From: Candidatus Omnitrophota bacterium
GTDB lineage: Bacteria > Omnitrophota > Gorgyraeia > 1-14-0-20-64-10
Reading direction: 5' to 3'
DNA: 64,000 bases
Assembly: GCA_016177405.1 (NCBI GenBank)
Contig: JACOVG010000012.1
Span: 5,385-69,384 of the forward strand
Shown one piece after another: positions 1-39,597 of this stretch. Below the pieces are notes generated by a model. That model ran no database searches. It was not told where the DNA came from and saw only the letters and a program-made list of their open reading frames with translations. The first letter of the stretch is position 1. Every line of letters starts with the position of its first letter. A program made the translations under genes and the position numbers.

Positions 1-18
1 GAGCGGGTCGAGAGGGTC

Positions 19-5019: not shown

Positions 5020-7387
<2,368 letters not shown>

Positions 7388-7394
7388 TCCCGCC

Positions 7395-21469: not shown

Positions 21470-21517
21470 CCGTCTATATGGAATAGATGAGGGTTTAAAG
21501 AAGCTTTTATCTCCCCG

Positions 21518-24500: not shown

Positions 24501-27500
24501 GGGATTTAAGAGAGTCGGGGGAAGGGGTGGAGGTCTCCGGAATGAAGCCGGCCAAAGGAAGGGTGAATGCCTCCACGCTGGTTCTCTCCCAGCCCGAGGG
24601 AAAGCGCAATTTCATCCACCAGCTGGGGGCCAGCAACGAGCTTACCCCAGCCGATGTCCCGGACTCGGCTTTCCAGGGCGAGATCTTCTCCCTTCACGGG
24701 TCGGAGCTCGCCCAGAGGTTCATGAAGGGCGGGAAAGGGGTGATCGCGCTCCTGGAAAGAGCCAAGGCAGCCGGAGCCATCACGACCTGGGACACCGTCG
24801 TGGATCCCTTTCAACATTGGGGTTCGGGGAATCTCTCCGACAGAGATTTCGAAAAACTCCTTTCCCTCATCGACGTCTTCACCCCGTCGTTTGGGGAGGC
24901 GCTTGACATCATCCGCTTGCGGGAGGGGCTTTCCGATGCCCAGGTAAAGAAGTGGGCCCCCAGCCAGGCGGCGCGCTATTTTCTGGACCGCGGTTCCGAG
25001 GCCCTCTTCCTGAAGCTGGACGAGAAGGGGTCGCTCATCTGGACCACCCAGCGTTCCATCTTTGGCAGGCCGGCCCATTTCAGGATGCCGGTTCTCTGGG
25101 GCTTGAAGAAGAGGGACGGCACCGGAACCGGCGACGCCTACTCCGCCGCGGTCATCGTCGGCATCCTCATGGACTGGCCGGTGGAAAAGATTGCCCGGGT
25201 GGCCACCGCCGCCGGCGGGCTCGTTCTGGAAAATTACGGCGGGACCCTGGGGGATTACACCTTCCCCGACGTCCTCAAAGCGGCCGAGCGTCTTGAGGGC
25301 CAGATCGACGTGAAGATGGCTCTGGATTACCCGACTCTCTCCCTTTGGGAGGTGAGGCCTGGCGGGACCTCCGCGGGCTTTCCAGAGGGGCTCCTTCCGG
25401 AGGCCAAACCGGAATTGGATACCCTGCTTCTTCTGGCGGTGAGGCCTGATGAGGCGATCGCGGTGGCCGAAGGCCAGCCGGACGACCATCTTGCTAGAGG
25501 TCCTGTCGACAGGTTAAGGGTGCGCCTGAATGGGCGAACCGGCCCTCTTTCGCCGTCTGAAGAAGCGCTGGCCGAAGCCGTCCAGCGAGAGCCCCGCTTG
25601 GGTTCCACCCGCTCCACCCAGGAGCAGAGCGATCTTTTGACCTACATCGCAAGCGCTCTCCTCATTCCCCCCGCCATCGATGACCCCTCCGCTGCCGGCT
25701 TGGAGGAAAAGAATCGCAAGCCGGAGGCTGCCTCGGCGGTCTGGGACGGTTTGACCGTTGACCAGGCAGCGGAAATGCTTTTTGCTTACCGCCTGCGGAA
25801 GTCTTTGTACGCTGGTCGGAAGATCTTCCCCGTGGCCGGCAGTAAATCTTTTTTGGACACGATGTTCAACGGAGAGATCCGCAGCTGGCTGCAGACGGTA
25901 GCGAATGGTCATCCAAACGAATCGCTGAAACTTGTCGATGATGGCACGACCGTTTACGCCAGCTCTTCCGCCACGGGCCTGGAGGAGGGGGGCCAGGAGA
26001 AGGTTCAGAACGAGGTTCAGGAGGCCCTCTTGAGATTCCAGGGGCTCTTGTCCCACGCGACCAGCAAGGATTTGCACGTTTTGAGCCCCCAGACGCTCAA
26101 ACGGCTCCCGGATCTCCAAGGCTTAGGCGGCTTTGGTTTATTCCTGTTGCCTGACTCGAAGTTGCCGTTAGATCAGCTTCCGGGAGCAATAAAGAGGCGG
26201 TTGGGCAGAAGGCCCAAGGCCAATTTCTACGGCGCCGGAGCGGAAACCACTATCCTGGGGCTTGCCGCCCCGGGAGCGGGCGGTAGGTCTGGCTGGCTCA
26301 ATCTGGTTGTTGCAGGCAATGGGACGCTCGAGGAGTTCCTAGCAGGAACCCTGCTTCCCGGCTTGGGCATTCCCGACAAGCACTGGAAGGGCGAGGATGA
26401 TCTCGCGCAGATTGCGCTCGACCTGTGGACGCTGGCTCCTGCGCGAGCTGCCGGGCTGGAGGAAAAGCCCCAAACGGAGGACCAAGAGGACGAGTGGGGC
26501 GGGGTGGTTCGGCTGAATCTCTATGCCGAGCCGGATAGGGACGACCGGATTGTTATTTATAATCTCGGAGGCAGCCGCGCCGTCTGGGTCAAGTGGCTGA
26601 AAACAGAAAATCCCTCCAGGATCAGCGTAGGTTTCCTCGCGGCCGATGCCGGAGGAAGGCATTTGCCGGGCGATGTCGTCGTGCTAAGCGGGGAAACCGT
26701 CCAGCGCGCCCTGGATGAAGCCCAGAGCCCTCAATGGATCTGGCCGGCTTCCAATCGAATCCCGGATCTTCGCGACCCGGGAATCCGCGTCGCCATTCGG
26801 AAGGCAATGGAAAAGCGCCTGTCCGAAGCGAAGGCAAGTTTCCTCCAAGTCCCTCCTGCTCCTCAAGAGATGGAATTCAGGGATGGAGGCTACGCCGTTG
26901 TCTTTGACACCGCCGGAGATGACCCCTCAAGCTGGCGCCCCGTGGCCGACCTTTCCGTTCTTCCGAAAAACCAGAGGAAAATAGAGCTCGTTTTATCGGC
27001 TTTAGGTGAGGTGAACCTCGACAGAAAGAGCCAGAGCCAATTTCACCAGGAAAACGACCAACCCGCCGTTGATCCCTGGGGCTCGGTTTCCTCGCCTCTC
27101 GTGAGCGGCGACGCCTGGAGGAGGAAAGTCCAAAGCCAGCTCGATGATTACGTGACCGTGGTGCAAGCCCCGCCTCAAGGGCACGAGGAAAGGGATCCGG
27201 ATTTTCCCTCCAAAGAATTGCTCGAGGGCGTTCATTCTATAGAGGGAAGCTTGAAGGATGGAAAGGGGCCGGCGGTTGCCGAGGTCATCCGAAAAGTCCG
27301 CGGGAACTTAAGGGCGCTGGAAAGAGGAGGCCGGATTTCTCCTGTGGATTTCGAAGCCCTGGATGATCTTCTGGAGACAGCCGTGATCGAAGCCGAGCGT
27401 CCCCGCCGCCTTCCCGCCGGCCCTTCGGCTGTCCCCCCTCGGCCCCTCGATGAGAAAGAGGCCCCCCCAAGTGAATTCGCGGAGGGCATCCCCCTCGGCC

Positions 27501-30500
27501 CCGCGGCCGAGCCCCCCTCCGGCCTGGAGGAGACGGTCCAGGAGAAGTTCGGCAAGGCGCCGTTTGCCGTGGGAGTGCGTCTGCACGGTAGCACCATTGC
27601 CGCCGCTTTGGTCAATCGGAAGGGGGAGGTAGAGACCACCATCCTTGAGCCGACGCAGTGGAGAAAGCTGCCGGAGATCCTTGAGCTTTTGGGAAATCCG
27701 CCCCCCGACCGAGTGAATAAAGCGATCCTGGAACTGATTCCTCGCCCCGACCATATCCTCTCCTCGGAACAGCGTGACTTGGCCAGCCGGATTGGCGACC
27801 GGATTACCGAAGAAGTCATCCAGCACATCTTGGCCCTCGTCCGCAGTTCAGGACTGCCGAGGGAGAAGTTCAAATACACCTTCATCTCGTTCGCTGGACC
27901 TGTGGATCCCGTTTCAGGCCGGGCCGGAGTGCCTTTTGCCGCGCCCAACATACCCGGTTTTGAGAACTATCCCCTGGCCGAGAAGGTGGCCCATGGGATC
28001 GAGAAGGAGCTGGGGATGAAGGTTCGCGTGGATGTGAGAAATGACGCCCCCTCCGGCAGGATGGGGGAGACCAGCCCCAGCGGGACCATACCCGGCGCCA
28101 AGGGGGTGATCTCCATGATCTGGGGCACCGGGATCAACGCCGACTCGGATACCGTGCCCCTGTTTGAGGTGGGCCACGCCATCGTGGGTCGAATCGAAGA
28201 AGACGGCTTGGCCCACTACGAGTTTCGTGGAGCGGCAGAGAATCGGCCAGCCCTGGAACCGGATGAGTTTGAGGTGGAACAGCAATTAGGCGGCGAGGTT
28301 CTGGCGGCAGTCTTTAGGCAATACGGTTTCAAAGATGGCGGTGATCTCACACAGCAGGCTGCTCCGGACAATTCTGACCAAGCCAAGCGAGATTCGGCCA
28401 GGTCTATCATCGAGGACGTCGGCAAGGACATGGGCAGAGCCATCGCTTCCCTTCTGGCGCACTGCCGCAAGGAGCACCAGTTTGTTCCAACCCGTTTTGT
28501 TCTTACCGCCGGCGTGGCGGAGAAATTCGGCAAGGGGTTGGTGGATTCGAAGGGCAGAGACCTTCTGACCGGCGCCGTCCAGGATGGAGCTTCCCAAGAG
28601 CTTGTGGGTCGTTTCAATGTTTCTAAAGCGGATGCCGAAACGATGGTCAAGGCCGTTATCCGCTCCAGCATGGATGACCGCCGGGAGTTTGCCGCGGCAG
28701 CCAGCGCTCTTCCCTTCGCCGCGGCGGGATTTCCTGCCGATGGATTGTCGGTTCTCCCTGTATCGGAAACATCCCTGGAATTCTTGAAGAAGCTTAATCC
28801 TGATACCCCGGCCGAATTTGTTCAACACCAGCTTCTGATGGATGGCCCTCAAAGAGTGGCCGCGGTTCTGGAAAAAGGCAAGGAGACGCAGGCCGTGGGG
28901 ATGCTTGTGGCAGGCAGACTGTTCTGGGGGACCTGGGAAGATTTTAAGAAAGCGGGACTCACGGATGAGCAATCAGCCTCTGCCTTCCTTGACTATCTCC
29001 GGAATGGGATCCATGAGGCGCAGGTTACAGGTTTTAGGAATCTTTTCATCGAGAGGGTGATTCTTCGAAGAAGCCCCAAAAACGGCAGCGTCCATTTACA
29101 GCTTTCTGACGGACCGGTCCAGCCAGACGATGAAGTCACCTCGATGGTTCTCCTTCACGACAAAAAACATAATCTGGAAAACTTGGCCCACAGCCGTTCC
29201 AAGACCCCACTGCCGACCGGAAAAGCCGCCAAACCGCCCAAGTCCGGGCTGGAGGAGAAGCCGCCGGTGGAAAAGCGGGTCACCGGTAAAACAAAGTTGG
29301 CGGCGGGTGACCTGCTTGTTCGCAGGCAGCTAGGTGAGCCCATCCGCGGCTATCAGATCACGAAGATCGGCTGGCCGCAGTGGTGGCGTGGAATAACGGT
29401 GAAGCAAACAAGCATAGAAGCAACGCCGCCTCCTCTGCCTCGCGTGACGCGAAGAATCCTGAAGAGCGATCCAACGTGGACCCATCTTCCGCTGGCTGGC
29501 CTTCGGGAGGAGGATCTTGTTCGGCTTGGCTTGGAGACCTTCTTGAGCAAAATCACCCCAGGGGAGAAAGCGGCTTGGAAGAAAGAAGGCCGCGAAGCGG
29601 CGGCCAAGCAGAAGCAACATAAAGAAGAAATCCGCGCCGCGCTGGGCCCGTACGCCGCGCCGCTTCCCACGCGAACCAAGCCGAAGCCACCCTTCCAGGT
29701 GACGCAAGGGGCGCGGGAGTTCGAGATTCTCAAGACGCAGGTTGAGAAGGAAGGGCATCTTGTAGCGGTGGAGCCAACCTCCTACTATCCCGCTGCCGAC
29801 GGGGGGATTTCCAGTGAGAATGTCGGGAGCATGGTGACCAGCCTTCTTCGCAAGGCGCGCATGGGGGAGAGCGAACTTAAACACATCGCCTTCTTTCTCC
29901 CGGGCACTCCGAAGGAAGAGCGGACTCCAAGGAATGTTTTTGTGGTTTCGCTGGATCAGCCCATCTTTCAAGGGAAAGACGCGCCGCAGACCCTGAAAAC
30001 GGCGCTTGATGCTGTCCTGAAATATCTGCTTTCCCAGGATTCCAAGGAAACACCTACGGAAAGAGTCCAGGTCCCCTTGGCGAGATGGAAGCCGCCGGGC
30101 GCCTCTGCCCAAGACCCCCATGAGCTGGTTCCGGTGATCCTGCCCGTTCCTCCGCGCCCCGATCCCACCGCAGGCCCGCCACAGAACCGGCGGGCAGGCC
30201 TGGAGGAGGCGGCGGGGGCGTTCCTGGCGGGGGTTGTGGAGCAGACGCGGGCCGAGCAGGACCCTTACGCCCCGCTTCTGGGCACCGATGAGGCCCGGGA
30301 GGCCGCGGCGCGGTATCTCACCAGTCAGTGGACCGCTCCGGAGAGGCGGATCGACCCTTCCCAGCTCTTTATAACTCCTGGCGGCGCCGGCGCCCTGGAG
30401 CTTTTAATCCGAATGGCGGCCGATGTGACCGACGCCCCCCTCAAGGCGCTTCGAGATCCGAATGGGCGCCAATGGATTTGGCTGTCGAAAGCGCTTGAAG

Positions 30501-32872
30501 AACGCTACGGAAAACCGGCCCGGAAATACCTTCAAACCAAGGCCTTCGAAGATTCAACTCTTGGGAGCTTCATGATAAGTCTTTATCTCGCGAACCCACA
30601 GCGCGGAACCCCCAAGATCATCTTGCTTAAGATCTCTGATTTTCCGCGGGCCGACGATAAGGAGTGGCTCGATTTTTTGAAGTACGCTTCCGCCAATCAA
30701 ATCCTGGTTGTCTTCGAAGATTCTGAAGGTCCTACCCCAACGATGGGGAAGCTGATGCGGTGGGTCCAGGAGAACCCTCTTTATAAGCGGACAACCCTCT
30801 TTATGACCGATTTCGGGAAGCGTCTTGATCTGGACGACTACCCGTTGGGGGCGCTGGTTGGCTTTAACAACGCGCTCGTTACCCCTTACCAGACCGCGGC
30901 CGGCGGCTCGATCGCGGCCCCCTCCCAGGCGGTCCAGAAAGGGATCTCCCGCTGGCTTGCCCTCAAGGTCTCTCCCGGGGCAGGGGATGGCTGGCCGCAG
31001 GCTGCCCTTTCCTTACCGGATGTGCCGCAGAACAAAGGGTTCCTGGCGCCTCCTTATCTCGAGGGGAAACCGGACCCGACCCTTGCCTTGAGCTCCAGGG
31101 CCCTCTGGAAGGAGCGAGGCCTGCCGAGATTTCTGCCCGGCGTGAGCGATGAAAACGTTCTCTCAAGGGCGATTCCCCTGCACGTGGGGGCCCCCTCGGT
31201 GCCGCGGCCTAAATGGGCCAGGCAGGCGGTAGAGGAGGCCCTGAAGAGCAACCGCTGGAAGAGCTGGGAAGAGCTGGAGCAAGCGGTCGTTGAGGCAATG
31301 ATCGGCTATATTCGGCGCACGTATGGCGTCGAATATCTTGTGGATGATGTGGCGACAGGCCTCTCCGGCTCCAAGACCGCCCTGCAGGAGTTCCTCCTCG
31401 CGCTGGAGCATGTTGAGAAGAAGCCGGTTTCGGCGGCTCTCCCCAATCCTCACTACGTGGGATACGGTTCCTCACTCCGGGCGGTCATCCCGGATAAGCA
31501 GATCCATCGGTTTGGAACCCAGCGCGAGAACGACTTTGTCCCAACGATTGACGATATCCAGGCAGCGCTGGATGAGATGAAACAGAGCTCTCCGGAGGCG
31601 ACGAGGGTCCTTATCCTCACCAGCCCCGGCAACCCCACCGGCACCGTGATTTCGCAGGAGCTCCTGGAAAAATTGGACGCCTTGCTTCAGGAGAAGGGGT
31701 ATGAGGACGTTCACGTGGTTCTGGATGTCGCCTACGGACAGCTCCTCTTTGAGGGTAAGCAGCTTCAGCTGAACAACCTGTCCGACAGCGTCCTTACGCG
31801 GGTGGCTCTCCTGATGACCCAATCGAAGGAGATCCTTCAGCCCGGGGGCCGGCTGGGCACGTTGGCCATCGCCAATCCGGCGATTGTCGGCCGGATGCTG
31901 GACCAGCGGGTGTTAAAGGCCGACCGGGCCGCGATGGTAGCGCAGGCGGTTGTCTACGGCCAGGAACATGTTGAGGAATTTAACGCCTTTATCAGCAAGC
32001 ATGTGGAGCACCTGAAGCGAAACGCTAAACTGCTGACCCATATCCTCCGAAAGCACGGCGTGGATTTTATCCCGCCCCAAGGGGCCTTTTATCTTCTATT
32101 CAAGAAGGAGCGCTTCCTTGAGCTCGACGCGGAATTCACCCCCTGGGACCTGGGGCTCACCTATGTGGACGGCAACGCCTTCTATGCCCCGGAAGACGAA
32201 TGGTGGCGCATCGCTTTCTCCGGCCCCACCGAGCAGGTAGAGAAGGCGGCCCGCCGCCTGGATGAGTGGCTTACGGCGCATTCTCTCGCCGCCACGGGCC
32301 TGGAGGAGGGGGCCGCGGCGGCGGCTGCCCCCACGGTGCCGGAGGCGCTGGCGAGTCTCAATGGGCTTGAGAAGTTTTGGCAACTGCCGGATATTCCAGC
32401 GGCAGAGGGCTTCCCGGAACTTTCCGCCCGGCCCATCCTCATCGATACCCACGCCGATCCACGGCTGGGCCAACTCGCCCAGGCGTTGAGCATCATGATG
32501 GCCAAGGACCCTTCGGCCCCCGAGGTGGACTTTCTCCTGGTAGCCCGCTGGGAGGAAGTCTCCCCATTGCTGGAGGGGTTGAGTCAAATTAACCGCGAGG
32601 CCGCCGAGGAGTTCCTCAAGCCCCGGATCATCGCCTACGGCGGTTCGGAGGGGAGCCGAGAGAATGCTCGACGCGAGGCCATCGTCCGGTTGGCCAGGCG
32701 GTTCGGGCTCGGCGACGATCCGGAGAAATTGATACGGTCTGGGTCCCTTAAGGTGATCGGCGTCCTTACGCCAGATCTGGCGCTTGAGCTAAAGGATTTC
32801 CTTGGAGAGGTTGGATTACACTTTACGCAGGACGCCTACGATCGTTTGAAGGCGCTTCTGGAAGCGGCATAA
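21518..32872 (+). CDS. Giant multidomain protein 1 (3784 aa). N-terminal signal-peptide-like segment, then GT2 glycosyltransferase, pfkB-family sugar kinase, ROK-family sugar kinase and class I/II PLP aminotransferase domains, plus long uncharacterised regions. Carries 11 [SAT]GLEE motifs.
   Basis: GT2: VIPAYSRG...VGMTDADSNQ (DXD). pfkB: GGKGVIALLERAKAAGA...DGTGTGDAYSAAV. ROK: FISFAGPVDPVSGRAGVPFAAPNIPGFENYPL...VRVDVRNDAPSGRMGE. Aminotransferase: TSPGNPTGTV...LLMTQSKEILQPGGRLG. Uninterrupted ORF. Confidence 0.75.
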   Translation: MKPNLNQEESRCQTPKPVSDTVVPRLFLNKRPLALLLVLTSLTTWACPAFALRPAAPKESGLEEELSRTLTSAPARPELVAGPASGLEEWSDRFHFIIFPEGDRDDRAIATGFGPADHTLWIRIIQSDGFTSRLGFQVKDPSERAFPGEVLVLPGRTIGNLLRKTVPQRDLWRAWDIGVDKLTPYKRRSELAAFLARYPEFWKAVQKQKALAIAGGRDEQALSFQSGDYAVLFYTPGEDPAQWKIFADLSANPHRDDQPVTLTFSVSPRHEFNRKSVYLKRRGLPSSSAQPFSQRQTLTHQRAPNPPSGLEELGARLAEIPLSAGLTKLFQGLGQTQPDMVDRFLTIQESAKKQWLAILEKHPGELKMAVVIPAYSRGVDRIRSQDSLTLKLLQLKKLAEADTRGRVRFVIYVVDDKPEAGLQAEVDRARQAAGVTPEGPVQVRYLRLQDAVDKRRPDLKDLWFDLVPGEQGSRRSIKWGAVRYGMSVAVEEGARVVGMTDADSNQQASELPNLFAPILLEDRAAAVGSRFLNGSASNNDQIGPHNFIEYFLYNPLVKLAMPEIAPIEDLQSGLKAFSAKFLKAALPKMATHKFAGDSELLFLMAQAGGRIAEVPRSEIEESPGQSAVNPASYMSFVEQLKLQLVLHAGGRGFPPAASRFGRAIQGLNVGFWTAQRRRFEQALNEVQAGRKTHAEVEGLLHDLLFPATGLEEGEEFTGEAHPGDIIWNPNDPQGIRYVVDRLEGGRVVAHPEKEPKAVVRFHPDALKRDFKRASPPLKTLKERAAQVPAEVQELSIRGGRRLEKQRAAFYRIQDLIGQDPEVLRRLKSVRVGAKVVLYGATSEELSHFQGLGLEPADYDFVLLEPVSNPGMAGDLVKKAWMKASVVFAGISVMDFITLVQPPGVAGSKERLPFPDWADPAKPLTVVDQFPEGAAAYLAKAERVISGGPSHSGARVAWQTLGGGVQGLGKRGDVRVSHVSRVGEGTEGEKLLVSLRDLRESGEGVEVSGMKPAKGRVNASTLVLSQPEGKRNFIHQLGASNELTPADVPDSAFQGEIFSLHGSELAQRFMKGGKGVIALLERAKAAGAITTWDTVVDPFQHWGSGNLSDRDFEKLLSLIDVFTPSFGEALDIIRLREGLSDAQVKKWAPSQAARYFLDRGSEALFLKLDEKGSLIWTTQRSIFGRPAHFRMPVLWGLKKRDGTGTGDAYSAAVIVGILMDWPVEKIARVATAAGGLVLENYGGTLGDYTFPDVLKAAERLEGQIDVKMALDYPTLSLWEVRPGGTSAGFPEGLLPEAKPELDTLLLLAVRPDEAIAVAEGQPDDHLARGPVDRLRVRLNGRTGPLSPSEEALAEAVQREPRLGSTRSTQEQSDLLTYIASALLIPPAIDDPSAAGLEEKNRKPEAASAVWDGLTVDQAAEMLFAYRLRKSLYAGRKIFPVAGSKSFLDTMFNGEIRSWLQTVANGHPNESLKLVDDGTTVYASSSATGLEEGGQEKVQNEVQEALLRFQGLLSHATSKDLHVLSPQTLKRLPDLQGLGGFGLFLLPDSKLPLDQLPGAIKRRLGRRPKANFYGAGAETTILGLAAPGAGGRSGWLNLVVAGNGTLEEFLAGTLLPGLGIPDKHWKGEDDLAQIALDLWTLAPARAAGLEEKPQTEDQEDEWGGVVRLNLYAEPDRDDRIVIYNLGGSRAVWVKWLKTENPSRISVGFLAADAGGRHLPGDVVVLSGETVQRALDEAQSPQWIWPASNRIPDLRDPGIRVAIRKAMEKRLSEAKASFLQVPPAPQEMEFRDGGYAVVFDTAGDDPSSWRPVADLSVLPKNQRKIELVLSALGEVNLDRKSQSQFHQENDQPAVDPWGSVSSPLVSGDAWRRKVQSQLDDYVTVVQAPPQGHEERDPDFPSKELLEGVHSIEGSLKDGKGPAVAEVIRKVRGNLRALERGGRISPVDFEALDDLLETAVIEAERPRRLPAGPSAVPPRPLDEKEAPPSEFAEGIPLGPAAEPPSGLEETVQEKFGKAPFAVGVRLHGSTIAAALVNRKGEVETTILEPTQWRKLPEILELLGNPPPDRVNKAILELIPRPDHILSSEQRDLASRIGDRITEEVIQHILALVRSSGLPREKFKYTFISFAGPVDPVSGRAGVPFAAPNIPGFENYPLAEKVAHGIEKELGMKVRVDVRNDAPSGRMGETSPSGTIPGAKGVISMIWGTGINADSDTVPLFEVGHAIVGRIEEDGLAHYEFRGAAENRPALEPDEFEVEQQLGGEVLAAVFRQYGFKDGGDLTQQAAPDNSDQAKRDSARSIIEDVGKDMGRAIASLLAHCRKEHQFVPTRFVLTAGVAEKFGKGLVDSKGRDLLTGAVQDGASQELVGRFNVSKADAETMVKAVIRSSMDDRREFAAAASALPFAAAGFPADGLSVLPVSETSLEFLKKLNPDTPAEFVQHQLLMDGPQRVAAVLEKGKETQAVGMLVAGRLFWGTWEDFKKAGLTDEQSASAFLDYLRNGIHEAQVTGFRNLFIERVILRRSPKNGSVHLQLSDGPVQPDDEVTSMVLLHDKKHNLENLAHSRSKTPLPTGKAAKPPKSGLEEKPPVEKRVTGKTKLAAGDLLVRRQLGEPIRGYQITKIGWPQWWRGITVKQTSIEATPPPLPRVTRRILKSDPTWTHLPLAGLREEDLVRLGLETFLSKITPGEKAAWKKEGREAAAKQKQHKEEIRAALGPYAAPLPTRTKPKPPFQVTQGAREFEILKTQVEKEGHLVAVEPTSYYPAADGGISSENVGSMVTSLLRKARMGESELKHIAFFLPGTPKEERTPRNVFVVSLDQPIFQGKDAPQTLKTALDAVLKYLLSQDSKETPTERVQVPLARWKPPGASAQDPHELVPVILPVPPRPDPTAGPPQNRRAGLEEAAGAFLAGVVEQTRAEQDPYAPLLGTDEAREAAARYLTSQWTAPERRIDPSQLFITPGGAGALELLIRMAADVTDAPLKALRDPNGRQWIWLSKALEERYGKPARKYLQTKAFEDSTLGSFMISLYLANPQRGTPKIILLKISDFPRADDKEWLDFLKYASANQILVVFEDSEGPTPTMGKLMRWVQENPLYKRTTLFMTDFGKRLDLDDYPLGALVGFNNALVTPYQTAAGGSIAAPSQAVQKGISRWLALKVSPGAGDGWPQAALSLPDVPQNKGFLAPPYLEGKPDPTLALSSRALWKERGLPRFLPGVSDENVLSRAIPLHVGAPSVPRPKWARQAVEEALKSNRWKSWEELEQAVVEAMIGYIRRTYGVEYLVDDVATGLSGSKTALQEFLLALEHVEKKPVSAALPNPHYVGYGSSLRAVIPDKQIHRFGTQRENDFVPTIDDIQAALDEMKQSSPEATRVLILTSPGNPTGTVISQELLEKLDALLQEKGYEDVHVVLDVAYGQLLFEGKQLQLNNLSDSVLTRVALLMTQSKEILQPGGRLGTLAIANPAIVGRMLDQRVLKADRAAMVAQAVVYGQEHVEEFNAFISKHVEHLKRNAKLLTHILRKHGVDFIPPQGAFYLLFKKERFLELDAEFTPWDLGLTYVDGNAFYAPEDEWWRIAFSGPTEQVEKAARRLDEWLTAHSLAATGLEEGAAAAAAPTVPEALASLNGLEKFWQLPDIPAAEGFPELSARPILIDTHADPRLGQLAQALSIMMAKDPSAPEVDFLLVARWEEVSPLLEGLSQINREAAEEFLKPRIIAYGGSEGSRENARREAIVRLARRFGLGDDPEKLIRSGSLKVIGVLTPDLALELKDFLGEVGLHFTQDAYDRLKALLEAA
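21548..21581. promoter_or_regulatory. Perfect 15-bp inverted repeat CGGTGTCAGACACCG-aaac-CGGTGTCTGACACCG, 30 nt inside the giant gene 1 ORF. Each arm is itself a near-palindrome.
   Basis: Read directly from the sequence. No in-frame alternative start lies downstream before the hydrophobic segment, so it sits in coding or 5'-proximal sequence. Confidence 0.6.
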
Positions 32873-32907: not shown

Positions 32908-35900
32908 ATGCGTTCGAAACTGCTGAAAATTCTCGTGGCGCGGGTTGCGCTCTTCACGTCCGTTATCACCTGGGCGGCGCCCGGGTATGCCCTGCGCCAG
33001 ACCGGGCTGGAGGAGTCTCCCAAGGAGCGGAAGCGGCTTGAAGTCGCCCTCCTGGGCACCGGCAACCCCGGCCAGGACCTCAAGAACCTCGGCGCCGCCG
33101 CCAACCGCCTCGCCACGGACCTTGGGTTTCTCCCTGCAGCCGGATTAGAGGAAGGTTCTTTAGGTCTCGATGATCTGATAAAGCAAGCCGGCGCTGGCTC
33201 CGAGGATGAGCGGAGCAGGGCCATCCAGGCCCTGGGAAGATTCTTTTCAGGGATTACGGTGGATCGGAAAAGATTGGCCTCGTTTGATGGCGGTCGCAGG
33301 GTCCTCCCGGATCTCACCCCGGTGACAAGCATTGGAGCGCTGGGAGTGGTGTTGAGCAACATGGTGGGTTCCGGTGACAAGATTGGATGCGACAGCGCTT
33401 CCTCCTCCAGGATGAATCCGGCGGTGCAGGTGGTATTCCGTGTGGCGGGGCACAACTGGTGGAACAGGGCAGGTGAAGGGAAGAGGGAAGGTGTTCCCGA
33501 CGAGGCGCAGATTCCGCCGATGGAGAAGCCGCTCGTCTTCTCCGCCGGCTGGGTCACTCTCTATACCGCCAACGACCCTGTGGATGGAACCACCCGGACC
33601 TCCAAGGGTCAGGATGGGGGGGTGACCCTTTTTATGGTGACCCCGGATTTTGGCAGGAGGATCCCGGACGAGCTGCGGCTTGAGAACGTCATCTACGCGG
33701 GTCAAAAAGCCGACTTCAGCCTGAAGCGCCAAAAGTTTGACGAGATCGTGAGGCGGATCGCGGCGTCGAATAGAAAATCACCTTCCGATTACGAGGTCTG
33801 GGTGCTCAACCGTCCCCATGGCCAGGAGATCATTGATCTGGCAAGGAAAGCGGGAGCCAAGGTGCGCCTGTATCAGGATGGGACGGTTCAGCCCTCCCTC
33901 TACCTGGCCGCTTTTCCGGAGAGAAACATCATCGTGGCGGGCCGCGTCGGAGCAACCGAAGGCAAGATGGTCGCGGCCCCCCTGCGCAACGTCCATTACC
34001 CCGGCGGCGGAAGGGTTTGGATGAAGGCCCGGATCATCTCGGAAAACTCCGCGTATGAGGTGGCGGAGAAGCGCCAAGGCGGCATCGTTTATTACGAGCC
34101 GAGGCTTGACCCGGACGGCAAGAAGGTCGCCGCGAAGAGTCTGACCAACGGAAACAAGTTGAGTCTCAAGGACAAAGAAGCTCTCAAAGAGGCCGGCTAC
34201 GCGGAGGAAGAGGTTGCCCGGATTGAGGATGGAAATTGGGAGCTGGAACTGGAGGATTTGGCTCCGGCGGCGGGAGACCTGTCCCTTTCCTACATCACCG
34301 AGCCGATGACCGGCTTGGATGGCCAGCCCCTCTTTGATTGGGAAGCGGAAATACACGGTGTTCAGAAGGCCGAAGGGGTGGTCAGTCATACGTTGGATTT
34401 CGCCGCGGATGGCATCTGGCTGGTCACGCATCGCTATCCGGACGCGGGGCTGGGGAGGATTGCCGCTCAACTTCATGAGCAGGAGCGGGTGGTTAACCTC
34501 CTGCGGAAGATCGTATTCGAAGATCCAAGCCATAATCTCCGGCAGGCCGCCCAAGCGGCCTTGAGAGAGTATCTGCCGCACGCGCTTGGTCTGGACTTCC
34601 AGCGGCGGGCGGGGCTGGCGATCGCGGGTGTGGCGGCGGGGCTGGAGGAGGCCAAGCCGGTCATCGGCTACCAGCCGAAACTGACACTGGAGCAAAACCT
34701 CAAGGCCCAGGCCCTTTTTGGGATGGGAACCGGTTCAGGCGTTACCAAGGTAGATGTGAAATACCAGATTAGAAACACGGCAGGAGATCCGGCCGCCTTC
34801 AGCCGGCTCTTTGGCGAACTCCTGGCCTTAAGCCAGGGCGACATGAATAAGCTTGCAAGGATTTTTGAAGAGGCGGTTCAGGCCGACTACGTGAGCGAGG
34901 AGCAGCTCGCCGCCGCCCTGCAGCGCCTGGCCGCCGATCCCGGGGTCCCCTACAACCAGCCGCCGGTTTCTTACTACAACCCGGCCCGCTACGTCTACGC
35001 CCGCCTGCGGAACATGCGGGGCGGCCGGATGACCGGATGGGTCGACGCGGTCCTGGAACCGGTGGCGGTTCGTGTTCGCAGACACGCCTCCGGCAAGGAT
35101 CTCTCCGATGTCCGGCAGAAGGCCCAGGTGGTTCAGGCCCTGCAAAAAAGCTGGGGGAGCGGTCGTCAAGAAGCGGGGTCGAACCTGCCCACAGGGCCTT
35201 TCCGGTACGAGATCTTTTGGGATTCCTTGGTGGAAAAGGACGGGGAATATTACCTCACGCTGGAACTGCTTCTGGACGGAGGGAAGGATTACGCCCAAGG
35301 GGTCGTTCTGGAGCTTCAGGTGGTAATTCCGGCAGAAGGGGAACTCCAGCAGTACCAGAACCCCTACACCTTGGAAATTCCCCCGGACAGAAGGGCCCCC
35401 TTCTCCTACGGACTCTTGGATTCCCTCCACTTTGTCAACACCCGCTTTCCGGAGTGGAGGCCCACGGCCCAACGGGACATCTACGATGCCCGGATGAAGG
35501 CGATGCAGGAAACAGGCGTGAAGCGCCAGATCCTGCGGCCGTCGGTTCGCCAGGGGAACAACCCCAGGTTCTTCGAGCCCTTCTTCCGGGCCTATTTGGC
35601 CGGGCGGGTTCCCTTGATCTACCACATCGTGCACACCCGCTCGGAGCGGGAGTACGGCAACCAGGGCGGGGTTCCCTCCATCGGGAATCTGGCCTCCGCC
35701 ATTGTCCGGCGAGGCGGTTTGGGAGTCACCGCTTCCTGGCTTATCGAAAATCCTAAAGAGGCCGAGCCGCTGGTCGGGCAAGAGCTGGTTTTTAGCTACG
35801 AGCTGGACCACCACCGGATTGACAATGTGAAGGATGCGGCTGGATTCGCGGCAGATTTTGAGTATCTGGTGAAGGCCTACCAGGAGGCGCTCGTCACAGG

Positions 35901-38900
35901 GTGGGTTTCCGCCAACCTGCAGGATGAGACCAAGCTGGAGAACGTTGAGAACCGCCAGAGCTGGCTTAGGTCCGGCGTCAACGCGGCCCAGACGAACGGC
36001 ATGGTTGACGCAACCATTTTTCAGCGGCTGGAGGAAGTCTACAGCGACGCTCCGGTGGCACCCGGCCTGCCCAGCTCCCTTGGCTTTCATTGGGTGCGCA
36101 ACCGGATCCTCCGCCACCTGGTCGAGACGGTTGGGGTCCCGGCAGGCGGGGTTCCGTATGACCGCTGGTACATCGAGCCGGACTATGCCCTGGACGGCAA
36201 GCCGCACACGGTGGAGGAGATGGCCTATCTTTCCTTCATGTCCTGGATGAGCGCCCAGGCGCACGGCTTTCCCTTGGGGCCGGTTGTCCCCAGCTACGGG
36301 AATGTCCACGGCGCCTCGGCGGGCAATCCGTCTCTTGCCCTGGCCGGTGTCCACCAGTACGCGGCCCAGGCGGCGACCCTTTACGGGCAGCCCTTGCCGC
36401 CAGAGCTTCTGGCGATATCCCGGAAGACCCCCCGCGGCTATTCCGACCTGGTCACTTCGGTTGTCGTGAATTTCAAGGATCAAGCGTTGGCGCAGGAGAT
36501 CGTGAAACTCTTTCCTGCCGACGGCCAGCGGACGGCCGCGGAAGAAGAGAGGATGAGGAATTTCGCGCTGGAGCAGTTAAGAAACATTCCAGCCGGCGTG
36601 CTCGGCACGCTGAAACAGGCGGAGCTGGCCATCCTCGAAGAGGTAGGGTTGGCCAAGAAAGAAGCGCGAGATCCCAGGCCGCTTGAGGAGTCGAGCCCAG
36701 AGGTGGCCAGGCGCCTGAAGGAGATTACCACCCAGATGGACGGGAAGATCCAGGCGATGGATCTTAGGCGGCGGGCGGCCATCACCACCCACGCGGCCAG
36801 CGGCCTAAGCGCCGCGCAGTTGAAGGCGGCGCGCGAGGCCGGCATCTGGATTGCCAACAAATCCACCGAGCCTCAAAACATCGTCCTGCGAGTTTTGTCC
36901 CTCTTTGACAAGATCTCCAGCGATGAAGTCGCCGGTTTGGACGCGCTGGCTAAACTCCCTGGAGCTGTCGAGATTTGGAAGGCCCATACCCACGGGATGC
37001 CGGCCCACCAGCGCGAGGAGCTGGCGGGCCGTATGGCCGCGCTGTACCAACAGATGTACGACGGGGTGGTGGAGCGGGCGGTCAAAGCGGCCAAAACTCC
37101 CGAAGAAGCACGGAAAATCCAGCTGGTGACCAAAAGCTACGGCCGGGTCTTTCCCTGGTTCTGGGATCCGCAGGCCGGCTGGTCCATGAATGAGCCGGGC
37201 TTAAGTGACTGGACCAGCGAGTTCGATTGGCTGACCAGCACCCACGGGCGGTACATGTTCGCCCTTCGGAATCCGGATGGGACGCTTCGCTTCCCGAACG
37301 CCCTCACCTGGGGGCTCGATCCGCTGGTGGTGGAGATCTCCCAGCACCTGATTGAGCAGACGATACCCTTCTACCATCGGCCCGATGTCATGAACGCCGA
37401 GGGGGCCGCCCAGGAGTACCGCGATTTCATGGCCGCCAAAACCACCGCCGGTGCGCCGGCCGAAGCCGACCATTGGACCGACAAGCCCCAAGGGCCGAAA
37501 TTGGACGACGCCGGGCTGGAGGAGAGCAACATCGCGAAGGCGAAGGGGCTGGGGAGTATCTTCTGCTTCGACTTTCTTGAGAACATCTCCGATGGCTTGA
37601 TCGAGGCCGCGATCCAGGGGGGCGCCACGGAGTTCACCATGAACCCCTATTCGACAGGGAATTACATCCAGCACCTCCTGACCCTTGCCACCGACGCGGG
37701 CCGCCAAAAGGCCGAGGCCCTCCAGGGGATACAGACTACGGAGCAATGGACAGGGTTCAAGAAGGAGGTGACCGATCTGGTCAAGGCAAAGGATAAGATA
37801 GGGCTGGCGCTGAAGGCGGCGATAGAGCCCTCACCGGATGTGAAGCCGGAGACCGAGCTGGCTCTAGCCAAGGCAGTTGCCCAGGCGATGCTGGCCGAGG
37901 CCGGTGTCGTGAAAGGGATGATGGAGCAATTGTCCCGGGAAGGGAAAAGCGGCGAAGAGGCGTACTGGGTCATCACCAAGTATTTTGCCGGAAAGATTGC
38001 CAGGCGGCTCAAGCCGATCTTTGATGGCTCCCAAGAGAAAACCGGCTACGTCTCCATCGAGGTGGATCCGCGGATCGAGCGGGAGGATTTTGCCGAAAGC
38101 CGCATGGAACCGGGAGCGGCGCGAGATAGAACCACTCGGCATCTTTGGATGGCGGACCGGATGCAGACAGAAACCAGGGATCTGGCCGGGATTGCCTCCA
38201 ACATCCTGGTCAAGGTTCCTGACACCGAGGCAGGGATCGCCACTGTTGGCGTGGTGGATGCCAACTACAATGTGACCCTGGCTTTTGTCGACGATGACGG
38301 TCGGGATGCCATTGCCGCTTTCGAGAAGAGGGGCGATTTGGCCCACCGCCTGCGCGTATCGCCCTTCGCCAGCCGGAACGCCGTCTACTTTGAGGAGTTC
38401 TGGGGCGATCTGATGAAGGAAGCCGACGGCTCCCAGGTGATTGACGGCCACGCCTGCACCATCGCCAATCTTTTCGATGTCTTTGAGGCACTCGGCAGCT
38501 ACGCGGACGGCGCCATCTGGTCCAGTCTCGGCATGAAGGTGAAGGGGGACCCGGGCGAGCTGTACGCCAGGTACGTGGTCGGTGTCGGGATCTTGAACGC
38601 CCCGCCGGAGACGGCCCGCGATTTCAACCGGGCCTCCTTTGAAATCCGGCGCTGGCTGGGTGAGAAAAGTTTGGTGGAGATCCTGACCGATTATTTCCAA
38701 GCGGTGAAAGAGGGCAAGGTCCCCTCGGCGACAGCGAAGTTCCCGGCCTTGATGGACGGTTCGATCTCTCCAGAGGATCTGGCGCGGCAGGCCGTTGGCA
38801 AATGGCACGCCTTGAGGAGTCGGCCGGTGTACCAGGGCCGCTTGACTCAAGTTCTTGAGAGGGTTAAGCAGTTGGAGCTGGCGGCCCAAAAGCCGCGTCC

Positions 38901-39597
38901 CTTCACCCGAGAGGCGCTCGCGATTGTTCAGGCCAGATTGGCGAGCGGCGAGATGATCACCGAGAAAGAGCTGATGCGGGTTGTCTTGAAGAAGGAAGGG
39001 GAGGAGAAGTTCATCGCCCCCTTTGCCGGCGCGATCAAGGCGCTGGATGCCGCCATGCAGCAGATGAAATCCGGCCTGGAGGAGACGGCGGTGCGGGAGG
39101 CCCTGCGGGAGTTCAATGCCTTGAGCGAAATCTTGAGGGTTAGGCAGGGTCATGTCACCGGAAGGGGGCGGCCGATCCTGGTGAATCTTTCCGGTCCCGA
39201 CGGGCCAAGACTTATCGCTGTGGCCCAAGCCCTCGCGCTCATCAGGGCGAAGAATGATAGCTTGAACGAGATTGACTTCCGAGTGGTTGCTCCGGAGTCT
39301 CTCGTGGAGAATCTGCTTGACGGCTTGAAGGGAATCAATCCAGAAGCTGTTTCCTATTGGCTGTTTCCACGCGTCATCTCCTACGACGACTCTGCTCCCG
39401 CGAAACAAAAAGCCGCCTATCAAGATGCCAGGAAAGAGGCCCTGCGGCAATTGGGCGTTCGTGCCGCTTTCAAAGAGATTCGCGAGTTCACCAAGGACTT
39501 GGCGCTTGAGCTTAGGGGCTATTTCCAGGGTGGCGGCCTGCGGTTTGCCACGGAAGAGGCCTTCAGGCGGTTCGAGGCGCTTCTTAAGGCGGCGTAG
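32908..39597 (+). CDS. Giant multidomain protein 2 (2229 aa). Signal peptide, GlpX-type (class II) fructose/sedoheptulose-bisphosphatase-like domain, transaldolase-like domain, and large unknown regions. Carries 5 [SAT]GLEE motifs.
   Basis: Signal MRSKLLKILVARVALFTSVITWAAPGYA-LRQ. GlpX-like: DPVDGTT, VWVLNRPHGQEIIDLARKAGAKVRLYQDGTV, GRVGATEGKMVAAPLR. Transaldolase-like: GATEFTMNPYS, YVSIEVDPR, ILVKVPDTEAGIATVGVVDANYNVTLAFV...RVSPFASR. RBS GGGAGAAA 35 nt after the giant 1 stop. Confidence 0.7.
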   Translation: MRSKLLKILVARVALFTSVITWAAPGYALRQTGLEESPKERKRLEVALLGTGNPGQDLKNLGAAANRLATDLGFLPAAGLEEGSLGLDDLIKQAGAGSEDERSRAIQALGRFFSGITVDRKRLASFDGGRRVLPDLTPVTSIGALGVVLSNMVGSGDKIGCDSASSSRMNPAVQVVFRVAGHNWWNRAGEGKREGVPDEAQIPPMEKPLVFSAGWVTLYTANDPVDGTTRTSKGQDGGVTLFMVTPDFGRRIPDELRLENVIYAGQKADFSLKRQKFDEIVRRIAASNRKSPSDYEVWVLNRPHGQEIIDLARKAGAKVRLYQDGTVQPSLYLAAFPERNIIVAGRVGATEGKMVAAPLRNVHYPGGGRVWMKARIISENSAYEVAEKRQGGIVYYEPRLDPDGKKVAAKSLTNGNKLSLKDKEALKEAGYAEEEVARIEDGNWELELEDLAPAAGDLSLSYITEPMTGLDGQPLFDWEAEIHGVQKAEGVVSHTLDFAADGIWLVTHRYPDAGLGRIAAQLHEQERVVNLLRKIVFEDPSHNLRQAAQAALREYLPHALGLDFQRRAGLAIAGVAAGLEEAKPVIGYQPKLTLEQNLKAQALFGMGTGSGVTKVDVKYQIRNTAGDPAAFSRLFGELLALSQGDMNKLARIFEEAVQADYVSEEQLAAALQRLAADPGVPYNQPPVSYYNPARYVYARLRNMRGGRMTGWVDAVLEPVAVRVRRHASGKDLSDVRQKAQVVQALQKSWGSGRQEAGSNLPTGPFRYEIFWDSLVEKDGEYYLTLELLLDGGKDYAQGVVLELQVVIPAEGELQQYQNPYTLEIPPDRRAPFSYGLLDSLHFVNTRFPEWRPTAQRDIYDARMKAMQETGVKRQILRPSVRQGNNPRFFEPFFRAYLAGRVPLIYHIVHTRSEREYGNQGGVPSIGNLASAIVRRGGLGVTASWLIENPKEAEPLVGQELVFSYELDHHRIDNVKDAAGFAADFEYLVKAYQEALVTGWVSANLQDETKLENVENRQSWLRSGVNAAQTNGMVDATIFQRLEEVYSDAPVAPGLPSSLGFHWVRNRILRHLVETVGVPAGGVPYDRWYIEPDYALDGKPHTVEEMAYLSFMSWMSAQAHGFPLGPVVPSYGNVHGASAGNPSLALAGVHQYAAQAATLYGQPLPPELLAISRKTPRGYSDLVTSVVVNFKDQALAQEIVKLFPADGQRTAAEEERMRNFALEQLRNIPAGVLGTLKQAELAILEEVGLAKKEARDPRPLEESSPEVARRLKEITTQMDGKIQAMDLRRRAAITTHAASGLSAAQLKAAREAGIWIANKSTEPQNIVLRVLSLFDKISSDEVAGLDALAKLPGAVEIWKAHTHGMPAHQREELAGRMAALYQQMYDGVVERAVKAAKTPEEARKIQLVTKSYGRVFPWFWDPQAGWSMNEPGLSDWTSEFDWLTSTHGRYMFALRNPDGTLRFPNALTWGLDPLVVEISQHLIEQTIPFYHRPDVMNAEGAAQEYRDFMAAKTTAGAPAEADHWTDKPQGPKLDDAGLEESNIAKAKGLGSIFCFDFLENISDGLIEAAIQGGATEFTMNPYSTGNYIQHLLTLATDAGRQKAEALQGIQTTEQWTGFKKEVTDLVKAKDKIGLALKAAIEPSPDVKPETELALAKAVAQAMLAEAGVVKGMMEQLSREGKSGEEAYWVITKYFAGKIARRLKPIFDGSQEKTGYVSIEVDPRIEREDFAESRMEPGAARDRTTRHLWMADRMQTETRDLAGIASNILVKVPDTEAGIATVGVVDANYNVTLAFVDDDGRDAIAAFEKRGDLAHRLRVSPFASRNAVYFEEFWGDLMKEADGSQVIDGHACTIANLFDVFEALGSYADGAIWSSLGMKVKGDPGELYARYVVGVGILNAPPETARDFNRASFEIRRWLGEKSLVEILTDYFQAVKEGKVPSATAKFPALMDGSISPEDLARQAVGKWHALRSRPVYQGRLTQVLERVKQLELAAQKPRPFTREALAIVQARLASGEMITEKELMRVVLKKEGEEKFIAPFAGAIKALDAAMQQMKSGLEETAVREALREFNALSEILRVRQGHVTGRGRPILVNLSGPDGPRLIAVAQALALIRAKNDSLNEIDFRVVAPESLVENLLDGLKGINPEAVSYWLFPRVISYDDSAPAKQKAAYQDARKEALRQLGVRAAFKEIREFTKDLALELRGYFQGGGLRFATEEAFRRFEALLKAA

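Follow-up and report, generated by a model that had tools for sequence, protein, structure and literature searches.

A single gene of a Candidatus Omnitrophota bacterium joins domains of three enzyme families in one predicted exported chain. We analyzed a stretch of 64,000 nucleotides (contig JACOVG010000012.1 of GenBank assembly GCA_016177405.1, positions 5,385 to 69,384 of the forward strand; hereafter the window, in whose coordinates positions are given), which is ordinary chromosome. The gene that we call G2 is one uninterrupted open reading frame (ORF) whose product comprises, in this order, a leader, a short pro-segment, a GlpX-like phosphatase, an aldolase-like module, a transaldolase-like module and a C-terminal alpha/beta domain, and each enzyme unit begins at the short motif [A/S/T]-G-L-E-E (Table 1). 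A sister gene, G1, lies upstream, a third leader-bearing giant, G3, lies downstream, and the window opens within G0, evidently the 3' part of the gene for a fourth such protein. The original prediction, made from the letters alone, had reported GlpX-like and transaldolase-like domains embedded in one giant ORF, with the transaldolase hallmarks about 4 kb downstream of the GlpX motifs. Both domains are indeed there, each with a Pfam match above its cut-off, at a distance of about 4.2 kb, and every peptide quoted lies in its place (DPVDGTT at aa 223-229, YQDGTV at 322-327, GATEGK at 348-353, FTMNPYS at 1576-1582, VSIEVDPR at 1715-1722, ILVKVPDT at 1766-1773, NVTLAF at 1788-1793 and SPFASR at 1818-1823).

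G2 is a real gene of an Omnitrophota bacterium. NCBI holds an identical protein (P0001), encoded on an 83-kb contig, under the name 'MAG: fructose-bisphosphatase class II [Candidatus Omnitrophica bacterium]', whose source is a 'Candidatus Omnitrophica' metagenome-assembled genome (MAG). So long a frame could in principle be an artefact, either of mis-assembly or of an ORF over-call that fuses unrelated genes in GC-rich DNA; the window is 60-66% GC with many long spurious antisense ORFs, and one relative of G2, P0019, is clearly truncated near a contig end. We find this explanation hardly credible, given 6.7 kb without a stop codon, the same architecture in independent NCBI, ENA, Logan and JGI assemblies, protein-level conservation cassette by cassette, and a sister, G1, with the same leader and C-terminal domain as G2. 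Long antisense ORFs of 305-551 aa also overlie G2 itself on the minus strand (33778-34695, 34828-36483 and 37864-39450); over-calls of this sort are typical of GC-rich DNA, and nothing independent speaks for them.

Enzyme-like modules of G2

The first cassette belongs to the GlpX superfamily, and its metal and nucleophile machinery is intact, with a partly altered shell for binding fructose 1,6-bisphosphate (FBP). PF03320 (FBPase_glpX) matches aa 134-373 (nt 33307-34026; E 4.8e-17, 62.3 bits against a cut-off of 27), and class II fructose-1,6-bisphosphatases (FBPases) of the Protein Data Bank (PDB) match the module at 4e-12 to 1e-5; within the cassette the GlpX core is followed by a C-terminal extension of ~200 aa of unassigned function. 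Catalytic residues were taken from the list for the Mycobacterium tuberculosis and Escherichia coli enzymes (PMC5892879) and positioned by profile alignment to 6ayy and its T84 variants. The metal ligands and the catalytic Thr are all kept (M. tuberculosis Asp27, Glu51, Asp79, Asp82, Thr84 and Glu208 correspond to D162, E190, D223, D226, T228 and E351), as are Arg159 and Asp181 (R302 and D324). Among the FBP-binding residues Tyr114, Arg159, Arg161 and Asp183, only Arg159 is clearly kept: Arg161 is replaced by His304 and Asp183 by Thr326, and the position of Tyr114 is uncertain, with a Val aligned and a Tyr two residues downstream (Y263). Because of these replacements the substrate may differ from FBP. 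The module satisfies PF03320 and falls far short of the NCBIfam equivalog TIGR00330 (38.3 against 259.3 bits), which marks it as a superfamily member and not an orthologue.

Solved class II FBPases of the GlpX type, among them a cyanobacterial dual fructose-1,6-/sedoheptulose-1,7-bisphosphatase (PDB 7js3, 6ayy, 3d1r, 3roj and 5a5l), share with the G2 module the PF03320 fold family, the Asp/Glu metal ligands and the catalytic Thr in DPxDGT, at about 25-30% identity. They are cytoplasmic tetramers of ~330-aa chains, whereas the G2 module carries its 200-aa extension and lies inside a 2229-aa predicted exported chain. Full-length homologues of the cassette occur in P0002, P0004 and P0019. A metagenome scan with the GlpX-module profile returned no relative, and in a word-index search with the same profile P0019 was the sole match. 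We considered P0019 (L003 10001-11821, 606 aa) as a stand-alone GlpX-like enzyme and rejected it: the call is truncated 234 nt from the contig end and breaks off a few residues into an aldolase-like cassette, probably through a frameshift or assembly error.

From its modeled fold, the middle module (958 aa) can be read as an aldolase-like barrel of the class II (metal-dependent) type, though a very divergent one. Neither as a single sequence nor as a 3-sequence profile does it match any Pfam family or PDB sequence, and an exhaustive HMMER search of 1.84e9 cluster representatives yielded only 16 relatives; 12/16 are proteins of 1208-3907 aa and 4/16 of 260-786 aa, P0017 (786 aa) being the minimal single-module form. 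An AlphaFold2 (AF2) model, for which 11 sequences were aligned, has high confidence (pLDDT 84, pTM 0.88), and apart from the GatZ-type entry 2fiq every one of the top 50 Foldseek matches in the PDB is a class II FBP aldolase, with probabilities up to 1.0, a best E of 1.6e-3 and TM scores of 0.37-0.40; these modest values would follow from the large insertions that the barrel carries. PF01116 is unmatched by the G2 module itself and weakly matched by 8/11 family members (best E 0.0028). Across the 11 sequences, which are 29-55% identical, His/Asp/Glu-rich columns are invariant, including four His (H329, H391, H557 and H718 in module numbering) and the motifs YHIVH..SER (aa 905-914), E.DH.R (965-972), GNVHGASAG (1129-1139), THAASGL (1293-1301) and NKSTE (1316-1321). 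Such columns fit a metal enzyme. The invariant His and the GNVHG, H(A/G)(A/G)SG and NKSTE motifs resemble FbaA signatures, a likeness of motifs and not of residues aligned on structures.

The third cassette is a divergent member of the transaldolase superfamily that keeps the full catalytic constellation. PF00923 (TAL_FSA) matches aa 1667-1902 (nt 37906-38613; E 3.8e-8, 33.5 bits against a cut-off of 27), and a 4-sequence profile of the module matches PDB transaldolases at about 1e-7. In the profile alignment the VSIEVDPR, PNILVKVPDT, NVTLAF and SPFASR strands coincide with strands of solved transaldolases and place E1718, K1769, N1788/T1790 and S1818/F1820/R1823; the strand bearing the predicted Schiff-base lysine, ...PNILVKVPDT..., aligns with ...PNVMIKIPAT... 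and ...PNITVKIPMT.... Two further residues, D1555 (CFDFLEN) and N1579 (TMNPYS), lie outside the PDB alignments and were assigned by motif inspection only. D1555, N1579, E1718, K1769, N1788, T1790, S1818 and R1823 are invariant in the 4-sequence alignment, and we take their counterparts in E. coli TalB to be Asp17, Asn35, Glu96, Lys132, Asn154, Thr156, Ser176 and Arg181.

Relative to the transaldolase/fructose-6-phosphate aldolase (FSA) family (PDB 3r5e, 3r8r, 3clm and 1l6w), the module has the PF00923 barrel and the VSIEVDPR, ILVKVP, NVTLxF and SPFxSR strands in common, is very divergent (the same 33.5 bits), and differs in a ~130-aa insertion between the N-terminal TxNP strand and the Glu strand and in a helical tail of ~150 aa. 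The NCBIfam transaldolase and FSA equivalog models score far below their cut-offs (23-37 against 234-367 bits), so the module is a divergent superfamily member and not the housekeeping orthologue; it may be either a transaldolase or an FSA-type aldolase. Homologues of the cassette are found in P0005, P0006 and P0011, and in some relatives the module is fused directly to a transketolase. For both named enzymes, then, the original prediction chose the right domain family: the profile matches are significant, and the Schiff-base Lys and the GlpX metal ligands are present. Its enzyme names do not extend to bona fide orthology, given the wide NCBIfam shortfalls. It overlooked the 958-aa aldolase-like module that separates the two domains, as well as the repeated [AST]GLEE junctions, the scarcity of Cys and the reshuffling of cassettes, the features that make the locus informative.

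The chain closes with an alpha/beta domain that also ends G1 (36% identity, G1 aa 3594-3784), P0009 and P0012. Its AF2 model is well defined (pLDDT 88), and its fold matches in the PDB are heterogeneous, non-significant and Rossmann-like (NAD synthetase, USP, the N-domain of G6PDH), so no function can be assigned to it; with such matches only, a role as a protease was ruled out.

Table 1. Positions of G2, its parts and the other giant genes of the window
Feature	Position (nt)	Strand	Basis
G2, modular multi-enzyme protein, complete ORF, 2229 aa	32908..39597	+	ORF calling; identity to P0001
N-terminal leader, aa 1-28	32908..32991	+	Basic n-region, h-region of 12-14 residues, ...WAAPGYA↓LRQ
Junction motif 1, T-GLEE, aa 33-36, directly behind the leader	33004..33015	+	Motif scan
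Short pro-segment, about 45 aa, from motif 1 to motif 2, with a conserved E..L..AL helix-like stretch also present in relatives	33016..33141	+	Reading of the translation
Cassette 1, aa 79-577, from motif 2 (A-GLEE): GlpX/class II FBPase-like	33142..34638	+	Pfam and PDB matches
Cassette 2, aa 578-1535, from motif 3 (A-GLEE): divergent class II aldolase-like TIM barrel with large insertions (predicted)	34639..37512	+	AF2 and Foldseek
Cassette 3, aa 1536-2055, from motif 4 (A-GLEE): transaldolase/FSA-like TIM barrel with helical C-terminal extension	37513..39072	+	Pfam and PDB profile
Codon of K1769, predicted Schiff-base lysine	38212..38214	+	Alignment to solved transaldolases
Cassette 4, aa 2056-2229, from motif 5 (S-GLEE): C-terminal alpha/beta domain, ending ...LLKAA	39073..39594	+	Alignment to G1; AF2
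G1, upstream sister, 3784 aa, same leader, 11 GLEE junctions, same C-terminal domain	21518..32872	+	Pfam; motif scan
G3, third leader-bearing giant, 3274 aa, 3 GLEE including one directly behind the leader	46950..56774	+	Motif scan
G0, 3' part of a fourth such protein, cut by the window start	1..3006	+	GT5 starch/glycogen-synthase-like domain (PF08323, 7e-16)

A junction motif at cassette borders

The motif that opens each G2 cassette is strongly enriched throughout the giants. GLEE occurs 11, 5 and 3 times in G1, G2 and G3, against 0.20, 0.12 and 0.32 expected (2000 shuffles), and twice in frame in the partial ORF G0; at the DNA level the degenerate pattern GGNYTNGARGAR is found 30 times in the window against 3.0 expected. 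GLEE is the most frequent 4-mer of G1, G2, P0002 and P0004, and in P0003 it shares first place with AGLE, which overlaps it. Of 95 instances combined in a logo, position -1 is A, S or T in 89/95 and -2 is a small residue in 63/95, the flanks being otherwise variable. Around the middle module the borders are modeled as disordered: pLDDT is 66 over its first ten residues (below 50 for residues 1-3) and about 30 over its last twenty.

Cassettes bounded by the motif behave as interchangeable units. Pieces cut at GLEE align end to end across proteins in which they stand in different orders: a PHP-like cassette precedes the aldolase-like one in P0002 and follows it in P0003, and the GlpX cassette is first in G2 and fourth in P0004. 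Starts of homology blocks lie within 10 aa of a motif for 66% of 168 blocks, against 4.9% for random positions. The motif itself changes between lineages. Junctions read GMEE in P0007, a mixture of GVEE and GLEE in P0009, and AGVEQ (seven times) in P0011 of locus L001, whose neighbor protein has AG(T/M/V)E(Q/E); P0014, a distant relative of 2313 aa, has no GxEE and carries RxELR 12 times against 1.1 expected, directly before and after its aldolase-like module among other places. Invariance within a lineage combined with coherent replacement between lineages is what would be expected of a site read by a co-evolving factor. The C-terminal part of P0014 resembles a phosphoglucomutase-type cassette. 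A literature search for AGLEE, the GLEE motif or AGVEQ gave only unrelated papers.

Several features of the motif indicate that the peptide is under selection. For Ser at -1 both codon families, TCN and AGY, are in use, the third base of the Gly codon varies, and E and Q alternate at +3. The choice of codons also creates a Shine-Dalgarno-like GGAGGA within the ORF, and an identical 12-mer, GGCCTGGAGGAG, recurs at 9/19 in-frame junctions of G1-G3 (for example 22442-22453 and 34639-34650). Internal translation starts behind this sequence were considered and rejected, for want of a consistent in-frame start codon at the right spacing.

Two relatives, P0008 and P0010, have a twin-arginine-like signal at aa about 50-85 (TRRGFLTSVGAGAAALGAAALP; PF10399, E 8e-4), right behind the first GLEE; such a signal would be N-terminal only if the chain were cut at that junction. 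Among candidate processing enzymes, type I signal peptidase cleaving before the motif Gly was set aside, as position -3 relative to the Gly is often P, K or R. RseP (44118-45203) was also set aside, being a housekeeping site-2 protease in a conserved dxr-rseP-ispG cluster.

Leader, cysteine depletion and genomic context

The predicted export of the giants is well supported by their leaders and their composition. A leader with a basic n-region and a short h-region is common to G1, G2, G3 and most relatives, with the first junction motif 5-30 residues behind it, and the pattern of an h-region followed by W[AS]xP[AG][YFW]A-LR[PQ] recurs in G1, P0002, P0004, P0006, P0007, P0012 and P0019. In G2 the leader is the sole hydrophobic segment; G1 and G3 each have one more internal stretch, barely over the hydropathy threshold. 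To call G2 a signal-peptide protein, as had been done earlier, is therefore fair: one N-terminal hydrophobic segment is followed by an AxA-type site. Cys content gives independent support of another kind. Over their combined 10288 aa, G0, G1, G2 and G3 have 18 Cys, where 25 neighboring housekeeping ORFs reach 81 in 9747 aa (0.83%; Poisson P for the difference about 1e-18); G1 and G2 account for 6 where about 50 are expected, and full-length relatives (>1000 aa) have 0-1 in chains of 1.2-3.9 thousand residues. Exclusion of Cys from exported proteins is an established pattern in bacteria that lack robust disulfide handling, and its near-absence here thus argues for export on composition alone.

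The sister genes differ in content. G1 combines a PfkB-type kinase (aa 971-1243) and a class I/II aminotransferase (aa 3219-3581) with 8 unannotated cassettes, and a module-by-module Pfam scan of it at E up to 1 found nothing beyond these two domains. G3 has a stretch of 2996 aa without the motif, no confident Pfam domain and a weak GNAT match near its C terminus; with 12 Cys (0.37%) it is less depleted than G1 and G2 and may be of a different functional type. The partial G0 has no Cys in 1001 aa. Beyond the window, cassettes of relatives include transketolase, cupin-type phosphoglucose isomerase (PGI), PHP phosphatase, ROK-like and PfkB kinases, aminotransferase, dihydrodipicolinate synthase (DHDPS)-type aldolase and mannitol dehydrogenase, as well as REC and HATPase domains. 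Together, the aldolase, F/SBPase-type phosphatase, transaldolase, transketolase and PGI would make up a set for sugar-phosphate rearrangement, as in the non-oxidative pentose-phosphate/gluconeogenic network. Two adjacent family proteins (L001 2066-6958 and 8456-18553), one with DHDPS-like, REC and mannitol dehydrogenase domains and the other with aldolase-like, PHP, transaldolase and transketolase ones, come from a MAG labeled 'uncultured Planctomycetia', which puts in question either that taxonomic label or the phylum range of the family.

The giants stand among core genes. In order, the window holds 3-deoxy-D-manno-octulosonate and lipopolysaccharide genes, that for trigger factor, serC/serA, purA, an H+-pyrophosphatase gene, G1 and G2; then genes for peptidoglycan-binding and OmpA-like proteins, uppS, cdsA, dxr, rseP, ispG and G3; and finally a class II aminoacyl-tRNA synthetase gene (HGPST type), nusA, infB and a class I Trp/Tyr-tRNA synthetase gene. 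On L005, a 442-kb JGI contig (Ga0080064_1000029), the same SerC-SerA-PurA-HppA block is 64-87% identical and is followed by a giant gene (P0010, 3180 aa, L005 7610-17152) that has only the aldolase-like cassette in common with G1 and G2, at 49% identity. Compared with their neighbors, the giants thus change in sequence and in cassette order at a much higher rate, a behavior typical of surface or effector genes.

Several smaller features adjoin the G1-G2 pair. The peptidoglycan-binding (PF01471; 39759-40235, +) and OmpA-family (40257-40967, +) envelope proteins directly downstream of G2 may be co-transcribed with G1 and G2. Between the H+-pyrophosphatase gene and G1 lies an unannotated 207-aa ORF (20705-21328, +), acidic and Cys-free, with a signal peptide (...GWAALSFA↓QE); L005 has an ORF at the same position (6576-7481), and the product may be a partner of the giants. 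An AT-rich stretch (21330-21517, +) with a TTGACA-type -35 hexamer precedes G1, and the likely 5' untranslated region of that gene could form two strong hairpins (21434-21470 and 21485-21512; minimum free energy -45.4 kcal/mol, z -5.9), the second of which stops 5 nt short of the start codon. Neither these hairpins nor any other part of the window matches an Rfam family.

Proposed export and processing, and comparison with known systems

On balance we favor reading G2 as a Sec-type exported, nearly Cys-free, modular multi-enzyme precursor whose junction motif is a site of processing or docking. The precursor would leave the cytoplasm by Sec, through its cleavable-looking leader. Each cassette opens in a disordered linker with [small]-[A/S/T]-G-L-E-E, and this motif would be read by a lineage-specific trans-acting factor, most likely an endopeptidase that turns the exported precursor into free enzymes in fixed ratio, as a bacterial polyprotein, or, next in likelihood, a docking partner by which the chain is anchored to a scaffold. 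The enzymes would interconvert triose, tetrose, hexose and heptose phosphates through aldol condensation, then 1-phosphate removal and then C3 transfer, to which relatives would add C2 transfer, and would do so outside the producer's cytoplasm: in the periplasm, at the surface, or within a host or prey cell to which the producer is attached. Actual cleavage at the motifs we infer at even odds or slightly below. A fuller version makes the giants true bacterial polyproteins, exported, cut at [AST]G↓LEE (GMEE, AGVEQ or RxELR elsewhere) by a co-evolving protease to release a stoichiometric enzyme kit that acts outside the cytoplasm, with the same code in giants of 10-150 thousand residues; we hold this version to be possible but rather doubtful.

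Several observations weigh against the favored reading. The signal peptide was judged by eye and hydropathy only. Sugar substrates of the kind considered are phosphorylated, and sister cassettes need ATP, pyridoxal phosphate (PLP) or thiamine diphosphate (ThDP), none of them expected outside the cytoplasm. The aldolase assignment relies on weak scores (Foldseek E about 1e-3, TM 0.37-0.40). We found no peptidase domain in G1-G3 or nine relatives, many of whose cassettes are unannotated so that a novel protease is conceivable, and no specifically linked peptidase in the window, where the sole nearby protease is RseP. Not all domain borders carry the motif, as it is missing between transaldolase and transketolase in P0006 and P0008. 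Finally, codon choice at the motif is biased: Leu is CTG or TTG in 36/41 instances against a background of 53% (p 2e-6), and the first Glu is GAG in 37/41 against 67% (p 6e-4), which yields the Shine-Dalgarno-like CTGGAGGAG so that part of the conservation may act on nucleotides.

This bias is one ground for regarding the motif as chiefly a nucleotide signal, a Shine-Dalgarno-like GGAGG that pauses ribosomes or starts translation, or a microhomology for recombination, with the peptide as a by-product. The identity of GGCCTGGAGGAG at nearly half of the window junctions (9/19) and the fact that the variants L, M and V at position +1 all have NTG codons fit such a signal. We nevertheless consider it unlikely as the chief explanation, since the AGVEQ lineage retains only GGAG and RxELR has no Shine-Dalgarno-like core, GAA variants exist, the Gly third base, the choice of A, S or T at -1 and the two Ser codon families vary freely, most motifs have no in-frame ATG, GTG or TTG at the right spacing beyond them, and preferred codons are expected to be enriched at strongly selected residues. 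A role in recombination is compatible with one of the peptide, and ribosome pausing or recombinational homogenization of junctions would be a minor or co-existing explanation.

Another possibility takes the whole chain to be uncleaved, a covalent metabolon or surface scaffold in which [AST]GLEE serves as a hinge, helix cap or docking peptide. No protease was found, the motifs sit in flexible linkers, both published surveys of such giants leave cleavage open, and the conserved leader and C-terminal domain of G1 and G2 resemble the bookends of a functional unit. A simple hinge, on the other hand, needs no invariant five-residue sequence, the lineage-wide swaps to GMEE, AGVEQ and RxELR argue for specific recognition, and the motif right behind the signal peptide (aa 33) has no obvious hinge role; we keep a tethered chain as a tentative alternative. 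More remote is a cytoplasmic housekeeping fusion, held to the membrane by its uncleaved N-terminal helix, with cassettes that face the cytoplasm and serve as the FBPase, aldolase and transaldolase of the cell itself. The location of sugar phosphates, ATP, PLP and ThDP would be accounted for, the locus lies among core genes, and a missed transmembrane segment could invert the predicted topology, as West-Roberts et al. remark (bioRxiv 10.1101/2023.11.21.568195). Such a fusion is improbable in view of a Cys depletion of about five-fold or more relative to neighboring cytoplasmic proteins, a short h-region with positive charges on its N side and an AxA-type site, equivalog scores far under cut-off, and extreme divergence between relatives at orthologous loci (49% against 87% for HppA), unlike that of housekeeping enzymes. 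It is similarly hard to see the cassettes as pseudo-enzymes that bind sugars or the cell-wall material of a host or prey. Two FBP-contacting GlpX residues are altered (R to H304, D to T326), divergence of the modules is very strong and includes large insertions, and Omnitrophota giants have been tied to cell-wall attack (10.1101/2023.11.21.568195); yet every GlpX metal ligand and the catalytic Thr, the full transaldolase constellation of Asp, Asn, Glu, Lys, Asn, Thr, Ser, Phe and Arg, and the invariant His/Asp/Glu-rich columns of the aldolase-like module have all been retained, which leaves this explanation with little probability.

What the locus adds is the junction motif, the Cys depletion and the shuffling of cassettes. 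The motif, statistically overwhelming, placed at cassette borders and lineage-specific, is a concrete candidate for the cleavage points of the giants and allows them to be segmented for structure prediction, metaproteomes to be searched for neo-termini, and a co-evolving recognizer to be sought. The near-absence of Cys supports the departure of central-carbon-type enzymes from the cytoplasm and raises the question of extracytoplasmic sugar phosphates, ATP, PLP and ThDP; in ultra-small bacteria such as these, export would fit a role directed at a host or prey. If cleavage occurs, the giants would join the few examples of polyproteins in cellular life and offer a natural design for expressing several enzymes in fixed ratio. 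If the polyprotein reading is true, the junction code would explain how Omnitrophota giants of 10-150 thousand residues are used.

Giants of this general kind have been described in the phylum. Triosephosphate isomerase, PGI, FBPase, phosphoglucomutase and FBP-aldolase domains are listed in giant, predicted-extracellular Omnitrophota 'Archaeovorins' by West-Roberts et al., who state that information on cleavage points is lacking (bioRxiv 10.1101/2023.11.21.568195), and 'multi-enzyme metabolic clusters', with their metabolic content on the periplasmic or extracellular face, form one of three architectural classes of giants in a later survey (bioRxiv 10.64898/2026.06.07.730766). Both surveys predict the metabolic domains on the extracytoplasmic side and leave open whether the giants work whole or cleaved (10.1101/2023.11.21.568195; 10.64898/2026.06.07.730766); text searches of both found no mention of the motif, linkers, Cys content, shuffling, transaldolase or transketolase. 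The published giants and those of the window come from the same phylum, have a signal peptide or are membrane-associated, and line up many metabolic Pfam domains of unrelated families along one chain; FBPase, FBP aldolase, PGI, ROK kinase and GT5 glycogen-synthase-like domains, all listed for the former, occur here or in relatives. G2 has three enzyme families and G1 two more. Those of the window are smaller (2229, 3274 and 3784 aa, where the 2026 survey sets a threshold of 10,000 aa), lack internal transmembrane helices behind their leader, and contain no detected C39/S8 peptidase, HEAT or dockerin domains. The view that finding the two enzymes within one such protein is highly unusual thus holds outside Omnitrophota and overstates the case within the phylum, where two preprints already report giants bearing FBPase and aldolase; the locus is a small-format variant (2-4 thousand residues, leader only) of a described kind.

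Parallels for interchangeable cassettes and for coded junctions come from other systems. MARTX toxins of Vibrio and its relatives are exported proteins with interchangeable effector cassettes, variable between strains in order and content and released by cleavage of their linkers; each brings a cysteine protease domain of its own, and the proteins, which have glycine-rich repeats and C-terminal signals for type I secretion, deliver toxins and not enzymes of central metabolism. The G2 family resembles them in large size, predicted export and interchangeable cassettes, whereas the MARTX cysteine protease, type I secretion, repeats and toxins were not seen here. Viral polyproteins (picorna-, poty- and nidovirus) encode several enzymes in one ORF, in fixed stoichiometry, and are cut at a motif of 5-6 residues that co-varies with the protease of the lineage. 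In them the setting is viral and cytoplasmic and the protease is encoded inside the chain; the G2 family, with no protease recognized in its chains, is instead chromosomal, stands among housekeeping neighbors and bears a leader.

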